From: Escherichia coli
GTDB taxonomy: Bacteria > Pseudomonadota > Gammaproteobacteria > Enterobacterales > Enterobacteriaceae
Length of the DNA: 64,000 bases
Assembly: GCF_003334355.1 (NCBI RefSeq)
Contig: NZ_QOWP01000011.1
Strand: one strand, 5' to 3'
The notes under the pieces are model-generated. The model did not search any database and was not told the DNA's origin. It saw only the letters and a list, made by a program, of their open reading frames with translations. A program made the translations under genes and the position numbers. Below are positions 29,869-46,413 of the stretch, piece after piece. Position 1 is the first letter of the stretch. Each line of letters opens with the position of its first letter.

Positions 29869-29900
29869 AGTCAAAAGCCTCCGACCGGAGGCTTTTGACT
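29869..29900. terminator. bidirectional tonB/yciA terminator
   Basis: Perfect 15-bp inverted repeat agtcaaaagcctccg / cggaggcttttgact between convergent genes. Confidence 0.8.
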
Positions 29901-42772: not shown

Positions 42773-42799
42773 CAAATTGCGTTCCATGGATGGAAGACT

Positions 42800-44695
42800 A
42801 TGGCAGGGAAGTTTCGCTGCATTTTGCTGTTGATAGCAGGGCTGTTTGTATCATCTCTAAGTTATGCAGAAAACACGGAGATCCCTTCTTATGAAGAAGG
42901 GATCTCGCTCTTTGATGTTGAAGCCACTCTGCAACCAGATGGGGTGCTCGACATCAAAGAAAATATTCATTTTCAGGCGCGAAATCAGCAGATTAAGCAC
43001 GGCTTTTATCGTGATTTACCACGACTCTGGATGCAGCCTGATGGGGACGCTGCACTGCTGAACTATCATATTGTTGGCGTCACCCGTGATGGTATTCCTG
43101 AACCCTGGCATCTTGACTGGCATATCGGGTTAATGAGTATTGTCGTGGGCGATAAACAACGTTTCTTGCCTCAAGGCGACTATCATTATCAAATTCATTA
43201 TCAGGTTAAAAATGCTTTCCTGCGTGAGGGGGATTCTGATCTGCTAATCTGGAACGTGACCGGTAACCACTGGCCGTTTGAAATTTATAAGACCCGTTTT
43301 TCTCTCCAGTTCTCTAATATTGCGGGTAATCCATTTAGCGAAATCGATCTCTTTACCGGAGAAGAGGGCGACACATATCGTAATGGCCGCATCCTTGAGG
43401 ACGGAAGAATTGAATCCCGCGATCCGTTTTATCGTGAAGATTTCACGGTCCTCTACCGCTGGCCTCACGCTTTACTTAGCAATGCCTCGGCTCCGCAAAC
43501 GACGAATATTTTCAGCCATCTTCTTTTACCCTCCACGTCATCGTTGTTAATTTGGTTTCCGTGTCTGTTCCTGGTTTGTGGATGGTTATATCTCTGGAAG
43601 CGCAGGCCGCAATTTACGCCGGTAGATGTGATTGAAACCGATGTCATTCCGCCAGATTACACGCCCGGCATGTTACGTCTCGATGCGAAGCTAGTTTACG
43701 ACGATAAAGGTTTTTGTGCCGATATCGTAAATCTGATTGTGAAAGGAAAAATTCATCTGGAAGATCAGTCTGACAAGAACCAGCAAATCCTGATTCGTGT
43801 TAATGAAGGCGCGACCAGAAATAATGCGGTATTACTGCCCGCAGAGCAGTTATTACTGGAAGCGTTATTTCGTAAAGGCGATAAGGTCGTTCTTACGGGG
43901 AGACGCAACAGAGTCTTACGCAGGGCATTTTTACGGATGCAGAAATTTTATCTGCCGCGTAAAAAGTCTTCGTTTTACCGGTCTGATACTTTTTTGCAAT
44001 GGGGTGGACTGGCAATATTGGCGGTCATTCTTTACGGTAACTTGAGTCCTGTAGGCTGGGCAGGAATGAGTCTGGTGGGCGATATGTTTATTATGATCTG
44101 CTGGATTATTCCTTTTTTATTTTGTTCCCTTGAGCTTTTGTTTGCCCGCGATGATGACAAGCCTTGCGTTAATCGTGTAATCATCACTTTGTTTTTACCA
44201 CTGATTTGTTCAGGCGTGGCCTTCTATTCTCTCTACATCAATGTCGGAGATGTATTCTTTTACTGGTATATGCCAGCGGGTTATTTTACCGCTGTTTTCC
44301 TGACCGGTTATCTCACTGGCATGGGGTATATTTTTCTGCCAAAGTTTACCCAAACTGGACAGCAACGTTATGCCCACGGTGAAGCTATCGTTAACTATCT
44401 TGCGCGTAAAGAGGCGGCAACACACAGTGGGCGGCGTCGGAAAGGGGAAACACGGAAACTGGATTATGCGTTGCTAGGTTGGGCGGTCTCGGCAAACCTT
44501 GGCAGAGAATGGGCAGCACGTATCACCCCATCACTCACAGCGGCTGTTCGCGCCCCGGAAATTGCCCGTAGCGGCGTTTTATTCTCATTACAGACGCACC
44601 TAAGTTGCGGGGCCTATACCAGTTTGTTGGGGCGAAGTTATTCCGGTGGTGGTGCTGGCGGCGGCGCGGGTGGCGGAGGCGGTGGTGGCTGGTAA
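42800..44695 (+). CDS. yciQ: DUF2207-family membrane protein
   Basis: 631-aa ORF with signal peptide, central TM segments and C-terminal Gly-rich tail. Confidence 0.85.
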   Translation: MAGKFRCILLLIAGLFVSSLSYAENTEIPSYEEGISLFDVEATLQPDGVLDIKENIHFQARNQQIKHGFYRDLPRLWMQPDGDAALLNYHIVGVTRDGIPEPWHLDWHIGLMSIVVGDKQRFLPQGDYHYQIHYQVKNAFLREGDSDLLIWNVTGNHWPFEIYKTRFSLQFSNIAGNPFSEIDLFTGEEGDTYRNGRILEDGRIESRDPFYREDFTVLYRWPHALLSNASAPQTTNIFSHLLLPSTSSLLIWFPCLFLVCGWLYLWKRRPQFTPVDVIETDVIPPDYTPGMLRLDAKLVYDDKGFCADIVNLIVKGKIHLEDQSDKNQQILIRVNEGATRNNAVLLPAEQLLLEALFRKGDKVVLTGRRNRVLRRAFLRMQKFYLPRKKSSFYRSDTFLQWGGLAILAVILYGNLSPVGWAGMSLVGDMFIMICWIIPFLFCSLELLFARDDDKPCVNRVIITLFLPLICSGVAFYSLYINVGDVFFYWYMPAGYFTAVFLTGYLTGMGYIFLPKFTQTGQQRYAHGEAIVNYLARKEAATHSGRRRKGETRKLDYALLGWAVSANLGREWAARITPSLTAAVRAPEIARSGVLFSLQTHLSCGAYTSLLGRSYSGGGAGGGAGGGGGGGW

Positions 44696-44907
44696 TTAAG
44701 CTGATGTTAATCGAAACAAGCTTTAACCATAAAGATAGTGTAGTATGTTGCGCCTCAAAGCCAGGCCAGTTAAAACGTCGAGTCGTTTACTTAAGGCCTG
44801 AGGAGTTCAAACAGACTTTACTATCAGTGAGTCAGATGTAAGTTCTGACTCACTGTTGCACAAAAGCATATCAGACGCCTGGGAAGGCGACACCAAAAGG
44901 AAGCTCT

Positions 44908-45783
44908 ATGAGCGAAAAGCTACAGAAAGTGCTGGCGCGTGCCGGCCACGGTTCTCGCCGTGAAATCGAATCTATTATTGAAGCCGGTCGTGTGAGTGTT
45001 GATGGCAAAATTGCTAAACTCGGCGATCGCGTTGAAGTTACCCCTGGATTGAAAATCCGTATCGATGGTCACCTTATTTCGGTACGTGAGTCCGCTGAAC
45101 AAATTTGTCGCGTTCTGGCTTATTACAAACCGGAAGGTGAGTTGTGTACCCGTAACGATCCGGAAGGGCGTCCGACGGTGTTTGACCGTCTGCCAAAGCT
45201 GCGTGGCGCACGCTGGATTGCCGTAGGTCGTCTGGACGTTAACACCTGTGGTCTGCTGCTGTTCACCACTGACGGTGAACTGGCAAACCGTTTAATGCAT
45301 CCAAGCCGTGAAGTTGAACGTGAATACGCCGTGCGTGTATTTGGTCAGGTTGACGACGCGAAACTGCGTGATTTGAGTCGTGGCGTGCAACTGGAAGATG
45401 GTCCGGCAGCTTTTAAAACCATCAAGTTCAGCGGCGGCGAAGGGATCAACCAGTGGTACAACGTTACTCTGACCGAAGGCCGTAACCGTGAAGTTCGTCG
45501 TCTGTGGGAAGCGGTTGGTGTGCAGGTCAGCCGCCTGATCCGTGTTCGTTACGGTGATATCCCACTGCCGAAAGGTCTGCCACGCGGTGGCTGGACGGAG
45601 CTGGACCTCGCCCAGACTAACTATCTGCGCGAACTGGTGGAGCTACCGCCAGAAACCAGCTCTAAAGTCGCTGTAGAAAAAGACCGTCGTCGCATGAAGG
45701 CGAATCAGATTCGTCGTGCGGTGAAACGTCACAGTCAGGTGAGCGGCGGTCGTCGTTCTGGCGGACGTAATAATAACGGTTAA
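44908..45783 (+). CDS. rluB: 23S rRNA pseudouridine synthase
   Basis: 291-aa ORF with S4 domain and RsuA-type catalytic motif [14 protein letters not shown]; basic C-terminal tail. Confidence 0.92.
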
Positions 45784-45790
45784 TCAAAGT

Positions 45791-45818
45791 ATGCCGGACG
45801 TCATATCCGGCATTTTTA
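45791..45818 (+). terminator. rluB terminator
   Basis: atgccgga / tccggcat hairpin then ttttt. Confidence 0.7.
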
Positions 45819-45822
45819 CAGA

Positions 45823-46413
45823 TTAATAATCGATCCCTATCTGCGCTTTTACACCGGCATCAAACGCATGTTTGATGGGGCGCAACTCACTCACCGTATC
45901 CGCCAGTTCAAGAATATCCCGATGACAGCCTCGACCCGTAATAATGACGGTTTGCTGATGTGGACGTTCATTTAACGCCTGCACCACTTCTTCCAGTGGC
46001 AAATAGTCATACGCCACCATATAAGTCAGCTCATCAAGCAAGACCATATCCAGTGAGGAATCAGCAAGCATCCGCTTTGCATGTTGCCAGACTTCGCGGC
46101 AGGCGGTGGTATCAGACTCGCGGTTTTGTGTATCCCAGGTAAAGCCCGTTGCCATCACCTGAAACTCAACGCCATGTGGCTCCAGCAGATTGCGTTCGCC
46201 ATTAGGCCAGGTGCCTTTAATAAACTGCACGACGCCCACTTTTTTTCCGTGACCAACTGCGCGTGTTGCCGTACCAAATGCCGCGGTGGTTTTGCCTTTT
46301 CCATTGCCGGTAAAGACGATGATAATACCGCGTTCATCCTGGGCCTGGGCCACACGAGCATCTACTTTTTCTTTCACTCGCTGCTGACGCTGTTGGTAGC
46401 GTTCATCACTCAT
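45823..46413 (-). CDS. btuR: cob(I)alamin adenosyltransferase
   Basis: 196-aa ORF with P-loop GNGKGKTTAA. Confidence 0.9.
   Translation of the reverse strand: MSDERYQQRQQRVKEKVDARVAQAQDERGIIIVFTGNGKGKTTAAFGTATRAVGHGKKVGVVQFIKGTWPNGERNLLEPHGVEFQVMATGFTWDTQNRESDTTACREVWQHAKRMLADSSLDMVLLDELTYMVAYDYLPLEEVVQALNERPHQQTVIITGRGCHRDILELADTVSELRPIKHAFDAGVKAQIGIDY

Follow-up and report, generated by a model that had tools for sequence, protein, structure and literature searches.

Stem-loops of the ompA and papA type are structural or stabilizing elements of 5' untranslated regions. The core sites of tyrosine recombinases (loxP, FRT, dif, lambda att) are built of inverted arms around a 6-8-bp overlap region, and helix 93 of the 23S rRNA (GAACGUC-GUGA-GACAGUUC), which carries U2605, is the substrate of RluB. 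Here we analyze a 64,000-nt stretch of Escherichia coli DNA (assembly GCF_003334355.1, contig NZ_QOWP01000011.1; hereafter the window), where a palindrome that we call hairpin B constitutes an unannotated but conserved structural element in the leader of rluB, a ribosome-modification gene.

With the ompA- and papA-type stem-loops, hairpin B shares stability, autonomy, a place in a long leader and a fold that stays apart from its neighbors, but it lies 70 nt from the 5' end rather than at that end, so that protection of the mRNA, a candidate role, would be possible only after upstream cleavage. Its 12-7-12 layout in E. coli and the integrase genes that abut its homologues in other genera recall tyrosine-recombinase core sites, whereas its spacer length is not conserved, the window has no integrase, and no duplicated copy was found. 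Dispersed palindromic repeats such as REP/BIME and ERIC are likewise intergenic in E. coli, but hairpin B is single-copy and has no Rfam match. Intrinsic terminators and leader attenuators offer a further likeness, being stable sense-strand stem-loops between a promoter and a coding region; the E. coli hairpin differs from these in having no U-tract, in having no 3' end mapped in the thresholded Term-seq tables of PMC7815308, and in being read through. The analysis identified neither an alternative antiterminator structure nor a sensing element in the rluB leader.

Sequence and rarity of the palindrome

The sequence-only reading of the window, which preceded this analysis, described a perfect 12-bp inverted repeat with a 7-nt loop about 50 nt upstream of the rluB start codon. 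The repeat is exactly as described, with arms CAGTGAGTCAGA (44825-44836) and TCTGACTCACTG (44844-44855) that are 100% complementary around the loop TGTAAGT, and its 3' end lies 52 nt from the ATG (Table 1). The stem is not extendable because T-T mismatches stand at both ends. The pattern occurs once in the window, even when up to three mismatches are allowed, and none of 100 shuffles has it. First-order Markov simulations predict 0.075 perfect inverted repeats with arms of 12 bp or longer and 3-10-nt loops, whereas the window holds 4, an excess of about 50-fold. As RNA, hairpin B has a predicted dG of -19.4 kcal/mol, with G-C at 6 of its 12 pairs. An Rfam scan of 44000-46000 (E <= 10) gave no match over 44754-44907.

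A second, shorter hairpin that had been noted further upstream (aaacg...cgttt) also exists and is here called hairpin A; AAACG (44773-44777) pairs with CGTTT (44784-44788) inside a helix of CAGGCC (44762-44767) and GGCCTG (44795-44800). Hairpin A is not conserved and varies within Escherichia: its edge carries a 2-nt indel in K-12, and a 21-nt deletion removes it from one Escherichia locus (L004). A minimal start-stop pair, AUG-UAA, occupies 44836-44841, its A closing the stem of the palindrome and the remainder lying in the loop; it is not kept in other genera and is therefore probably coincidental.

Other perfect inverted repeats of the window include one with 13-bp arms and a 3-nt loop (GAGATCCCTTCTT-ATG-AAGAAGGGATCTC; 42878-42906) in the 5' coding region of yciQ, and two with arms of 12-14 bp at 29869-29900 and 61607-61636, AGTCAAAAGCCTCCGACCGGAGGCTTTTGACT and CGGATGATTTGCCAAACTGCAAATCATCCG, respectively. 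The repeat AGTCAAAAGCCTCCGACCGGAGGCTTTTGACT looks like a bidirectional terminator.

Table 1. Features of the yciO-rluB region, in window positions
Feature	Position	Strand	Remarks
yciO	ends 42772		upstream neighbor of yciQ
yciQ (DUF2207)	42800..44695	+	accessory gene accompanying the long leader in E. coli
rluB promoter -10, probable (TAGTAT)	44741..44746	+	7 nt upstream of the start site; GC-rich discriminator gttgcgc follows
rluB transcription start site	44754	+	K-12 NC_000913.3:1326700
Leader hairpin A	44762..44800	+	CAGGCC...GGCCTG outer, AAACG...CGTTT inner
Leader hairpin B (palindrome)	44825..44855	+	12-bp perfect stem, 7-nt loop; +72 to +102 of the 5' UTR
A-rich spacer TTGCACAAAAGCATATCA	44856..44873	+	by alignment, counterpart of the relatives' U-rich tail plus GAAAGTATACCA
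18-nt motif GACGCCTGGGAAGGCGAC	44874..44891	+	5-bp stem, GNRA tetraloop (GGGA here, GUGA in most species)
Shine-Dalgarno AAGGAAG and rluB start codon	44897..44910	+	ATG at 44908
rluB	44908-45783	+	followed by btuR on the minus strand

Transcription through the palindrome

SMRT-Cappable-seq of K-12 lists a forward transcript, 1326700-1327761, that covers b1269 (rluB) only (PMC6131387, Supplementary Data 1 and 2). K-12 coordinates were transferred to the window through locus L083, which places this start site 70 nt upstream of the palindrome; in this leader of 154 nt the palindrome therefore occupies +72 to +102 (in the K-12 version, which has 152 nt, +70 to +100). Its assignment to the rluB leader, first made from the letters alone, thus agrees with a published start site. 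Thirty-seven reads begin there, and 25 of them get to the rluB terminator (18 end at it, 5 at most 50 bp beyond it and 2 further past), with the remaining 12 unaccounted for (PMC6131387); the method is biased to long reads, and short attenuated transcripts would escape it. A second start site at 1326297, within yciQ, also transcribes into rluB (PMC6131387).

A promoter and terminator consensus scan called no rluB promoter, which the scanner missed because the -35 is weak, and 0 terminators in 44300-45300. The accessible parts of the start-site tables of PMC4681348, PMC10301672 and PMC4782308 hold no entry for the rluB leader locus, and a literature search for rluB together with yciQ returned no paper. 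When folding begins at the start site, the predicted leader structure is a series of hairpins that are independent of one another (z = -3.5), with the palindrome in both the MFE and the centroid structure. MazF has been reported to cleave rluB mRNA at an ACA that lies 49 nt from its start codon (PMC5001579, Table 1). This site fits the ACA at 44860-44862, in the A-rich spacer 5 nt past the stem, and such a cut would remove hairpin B.

Homologous hairpins in other Enterobacterales

A module of about 60 nt that holds hairpin B lies directly upstream of an 18-nt GNRA hairpin, described below, in 25 sampled Enterobacterales loci. We found the module in 23 of 80 other species and in one of two extra loci (L094), while the other (L092) scored only 14.9 bits (E 0.35). 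Its consensus, TTACATAT-CAGTGAGTTA-(loop)-TAACTCATTG-TTTTTGAAAGTATACCA, comprises a stem base CARYG/CRYTG, a variable top and an A/U-rich spacer, and the E. coli arms fall in register with those of 24 aligned homologues from Escherichia, Leclercia, Kosakonia, Enterobacter, Cedecea, Erwinia, Pluralibacter, Pseudocitrobacter, Shimwellia and Yersinia. The homologue stems are shorter, A/U-rich and contain wobbles, and their loops range from 7 to about 20 nt.

Across the 12-pair helix, 82% of alignment cells are paired, a figure that falls to 34-49% for the structure as a whole once the partner is displaced by 1-3 columns. Double changes occur at 9 of the 12 pairs, and the observed values were reached by 0 of 500 shuffles, a control that overstates significance because the aligned sequences are related to each other. 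The ten conserved pairs hold 180 Watson-Crick cells, 29 G.U or U.G cells and 3 A.C or C.A cells, which are not phylogenetically independent, the 29 G.U cells amounting to perhaps 4-5 independent events. This excess of G.U over A.C favors pairing in the RNA of the plus (rluB) strand. Within Escherichia, the stem of L004 (CAGTGGGGCAG/CTGCCCCACTG) differs from that of the window by two compensatory pairs.

A covariance model of the module matched only directly upstream of the GACGCC motif in the 662 kb searched, including the unseeded loci L075 and L094; there being no copies elsewhere, the module is not a dispersed repeat. The conservation across enterobacteria that had been proposed as a check is therefore found, in the form of a leader hairpin common to many of them whose pairing is kept by compensatory changes. 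A start site downstream of the palindrome together with an unconserved repeat, the outcome that the same reading had set against itself, is contradicted on both counts, as the start site is upstream and the hairpin is conserved. More broadly, all alleles place a hairpin 6-20 nt upstream of the GNRA motif, with a mean best dG of -11.7 kcal/mol versus -7.6 for shuffled sequence, and hairpin B of E. coli is among the most stable of these. The promoter block GTGTAnTATGTnCGGCCACGAA upstream of the module is kept in E. coli, L094, L092, L043, L051, Yersinia and Pseudocitrobacter, and the long leader therefore looks old and native.

Two rluB leaders within E. coli

The yciQ-rluB spacer is present in 3992 of 5426 complete E. 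coli genomes, at a median of one place per genome. Another 1441 genomes (26%) carry a short allele, as does strain N96, that lacks yciQ and the palindrome module and has a 100-bp yciO-rluB spacer. The long and short leaders have only the last ~35 nt before the ATG in common, with homology beginning at GACGCC. The module is also missing in Citrobacter, E. albertii and many Enterobacter loci, and any role it has is therefore non-essential. Since a quarter of E. coli genomes dispense with the palindrome, its fitness effect is probably small. Natural isolates thus come with two rluB leaders, one of 154 nt with yciQ and a shorter one in the 100-bp spacer, which makes them a ready-made experiment on leader function.

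Where the palindrome is present it varies little. The 57 nt around the hairpin are exact in 2637 E. coli genomes and differ by one base in 1340. Five sampled one-mismatch genomes revealed three SNPs, two in the loop and one a C-to-T change that turns a G-C pair into G.U (sampled twice), so that no pair is broken. None of the E. coli matches listed carries the L004 stem variant, and the class of E. coli genomes matching at 99% or more probably consists of short proximal matches.

The short-leader loci L003-L022, L035, L045, L049 and L050 carry a conserved cTATACTacgcggcc (-10 plus discriminator) with a GC-rich hairpin within ~12 nt, often flanked by A and U runs, for example AAAACGGGCUCUGUCCCGUUUUU. 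This GC-rich hairpin would be both the yciO terminator and an attenuator at the very start of the rluB transcript.

A possible terminator origin

Hairpin B had been judged from the letters not to be a classic terminator, and three observations bear this out. Its E. coli tail, TTGCACAAAAGC, has no T-tract. The thresholded Term-seq tables of PMC7815308, as far as they are accessible, show no 3' end at 13266xx-13268xx and list an rluB end only at 1327761. Finally, 25 of the 37 long reads continue to the rluB terminator. Among relatives, a TTTT run directly follows the stem in 13 of 24 aligned homologue tails, and the consensus scanner calls the Kosakonia copy of the module (L037) a terminator. 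The closest leader to that of E. coli, in L094, has the form CAATGAG-13 nt-CTCATTG tttcataaagcatacca and has lost the U-run as in E. coli.

As a transcribed and dispensable stem-loop with homologues in relatives, retained pairing and no termination signal, hairpin B is best explained as an accessory RNA stem-loop of the rluB leader that derives from a hairpin of terminator or attenuator type and no longer terminates, a reading to which we give a probability of about one half. The U-rich tails of relatives lead us to infer that its ancestral role was termination, and its present role would be accessory and structural. Under this scenario, the ancestral stem followed by UUUUU would have been an intrinsic terminator or attenuator, a form still present in many relatives, and in the E. 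coli lineage the U-tract would have decayed while the stem grew to 12 perfect pairs. RNA polymerase starting at 44754 passes through hairpin B into rluB. The hairpin may serve as a pause or as a folding insulator, with the GNRA hairpin and the Shine-Dalgarno region folding independently, or it could possibly be a barrier to decay; it would not be a switch.

A cargo hot spot and the recombination-site alternative

The interval between yciO and rluB (window 42773-44873; compared in L001, L003-L082, L092 and L094) ranges from about 100 bp to more than 3.5 kb and holds variable cargo. In E. coli this cargo is yciQ in 74% of genomes and nothing in 26%. Beside rluB, yciQ is found in 0 of 80 other Enterobacterales species, and cargo in other species includes an island with a 555-aa integrase, prophage tail genes (a tape-measure protein), an OprB porin and an EamA/LysR pair. 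In every type of allele, homology breaks off precisely at GACGCC, where the 18-nt motif begins. This 5' edge is a previously unremarked hot spot for integrase elements, prophage ends and assorted cargo genes.

The 555-aa integrase of the Kosakonia locus (PHROG 1, E 4e-31) has its start some 25 nt left of the module, and a full, partial or remnant integrase gene stands at that distance in 11 loci, including two from Yersinia and one from Erwinia. In L026, at the left junction of a degenerate element, a short leader is kept up to ...ttcGACGC and then diverges; together with the loss of homology at GACGCC, this suggests site-specific integration there. We read these data as a family of integrative elements that would target the 5' edge of the motif and carry a homologous copy of the distal leader. 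The proximity of integrase genes in 11 loci also means that conservation of the module could partly reflect a role at the level of DNA, at the end of a mobile element.

Taken further, the hairpin module would be the integrase-proximal arm or core (attR/attP) of such elements, and the E. coli copy the scar of a decayed one. The arrangement of 12-bp arms around a 7-bp spacer matches the core layout of tyrosine recombinases, integrase copies or remnants accompany the module as described, the L026 junction and the divergence of all alleles coincide, and the E. coli module is nearest to the element-linked version (in TTACtATCAGTGAG and AAAGcATAtCA). However, arm spacing in element-linked copies is 13-20 nt rather than 6-8, and the wobble asymmetry points to plus-strand RNA. 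The module also lies behind the native promoter block in E. coli, L094, L043, L028 and 3 of 5 Yersinia loci, in all of which no integrase was detected, and neither the module nor the 18-mer is repeated, as an attL copy would be, within any locus.

Searches of viral sequence likewise speak against the module being an attachment site. An IMG/VR search with GACGCCTGKGAAGGCGAC as att core gave five matches, all inside unrelated coding sequences (DAWEGD/DACEGD peptides), and one with the element-type tail motif gave zero, so that neither motif is found at IMG/VR phage attP sites. The L037-type integrase has no match among INPHARED phages. A search with the integrase found a single IMG/VR contig, and neither it nor the Kosakonia contig reaches the other end of the element. 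The inserts of L023, L026, L030 and the window are not flanked by direct repeats. We consider the attachment-site explanation unlikely, and retain the accessory stem-loop as the preferred reading.

A near-invariant GNRA hairpin before the Shine-Dalgarno sequence

The 18-nt motif (GACGCCTGKGAAGGCGAC in the window) lies 18 nt downstream of the palindrome and directly before the rluB Shine-Dalgarno sequence. In the form GACGCCTG(G/T)GAAGGCGAC it is present in all 80 other-species Enterobacterales loci, with one base change in the stem, in Tatumella only, and G/T variation in the loop, which makes it near-invariant from Escherichia to Yersinia and Pantoea. The leader hairpin GACGCCU-GUGA-AGGCGAC resembles helix 93 of the 23S rRNA, but has an A at the position of the target U. 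In addition, 11 nt of the motif are identical to 23S positions 1206-1216 (GCCUGUGAAGG).

This resemblance raises the prospect of a feedback operator in the rluB leader, in which RluB or another 50S assembly factor would bind the helix-93-like hairpin of its own mRNA and repress translation. The palindrome would then be a helper helix that holds the adjacent GNRA operator in a defined fold, and the same sequence would double as the integration target. We regard the scheme as a whole as very doubtful. An autoregulatory site had been among the earlier suggestions for the palindrome, but the palindrome itself, which 1441 E. coli genomes lack, has nothing to speak for it in that role; the GNRA hairpin is the better candidate for an autoregulatory operator. 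It is a concrete candidate for post-transcriptional control of rluB and, together with the integration hot spot, a more interesting lead than the palindrome. A CsrA site was considered and is unlikely, as the GGA in the loop exists only in the GGGA variant.

The motif also overlaps a promoter-like element on the minus strand (44865-44893), with a -35 GTGTCG inside the motif, a 17-bp spacer and an extended -10 TGaTATGCT (complement of 44865-44873). The geometry of the extended -10 (TGnTATACT, or TGgTATACT in integrase-bearing loci) is constant in 8 of 9 loci scanned. If active, the element would fire leftwards through the palindrome toward the integrase; no K-12 start site has been reported for 44865-44893.

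Other readings of the palindrome

Hairpin B might instead terminate or stabilize the 3' end of the upstream yciQ transcript, given that 130 nt separate it from the yciQ stop codon upstream and that the segment around it comes and goes with yciQ among E. coli genomes. The promoter and start site of rluB intervene between yciQ and the hairpin, and the homologous hairpins of 23 scanned other-species loci and of L094 all occur without yciQ; on these grounds we find the idea quite improbable. The lack of both a U-tract and a 3' end in the thresholded Term-seq tables also counts against it, as does the presence in the bicyclomycin table of PMC7815308 of a site inside yciQ (1325258). This entry of the Rho-inhibitor table is on the plus strand of K-12 and corresponds to about window 43312.

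As for the two remaining suggestions of the sequence-only reading, an RNase III processing site in the rluB leader and a DNA operator, both come out as extremely unlikely. The perfect, uninterrupted stem is the sole feature that speaks for RNase III, and the stem is only 12 bp long against the ~22-bp duplex, about two helical turns (~20-22 bp), that the valley of the enzyme accommodates according to PMC6212723; stems of homologues are shorter still, A/U-rich and interrupted by wobbles, and rluB goes unmentioned in the main text of this transcriptome-wide study.

A dimeric DNA-binding transcription factor would find perfect dyad symmetry in the window and in K-12, yet the palindrome sits 70 nt downstream of the start site and its symmetry is not conserved in DNA. 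Relatives pair through G.U (29 cells versus 3 A.C), the E. coli C-to-T variant spoils the DNA palindrome while keeping a G.U pair, and homologue loops vary in length from 7 to about 20 nt; the wobble asymmetry and the variable loop together make an operator unlikely. To our knowledge no E. coli regulator consensus fits the palindrome, and neither the LexA nor the TyrR box does. An IHF site fits some relatives (AATCAATGAGTTA), not E. coli.

Antisense to the 5' end of rluB, the accessible Term-seq and bicyclomycin tables of PMC7815308 contain a site at K-12 1326939 (minus strand), about window 44995. A promoter-like site on the minus strand, TCAACA-17-AATAAT, is found at 45002-44974.
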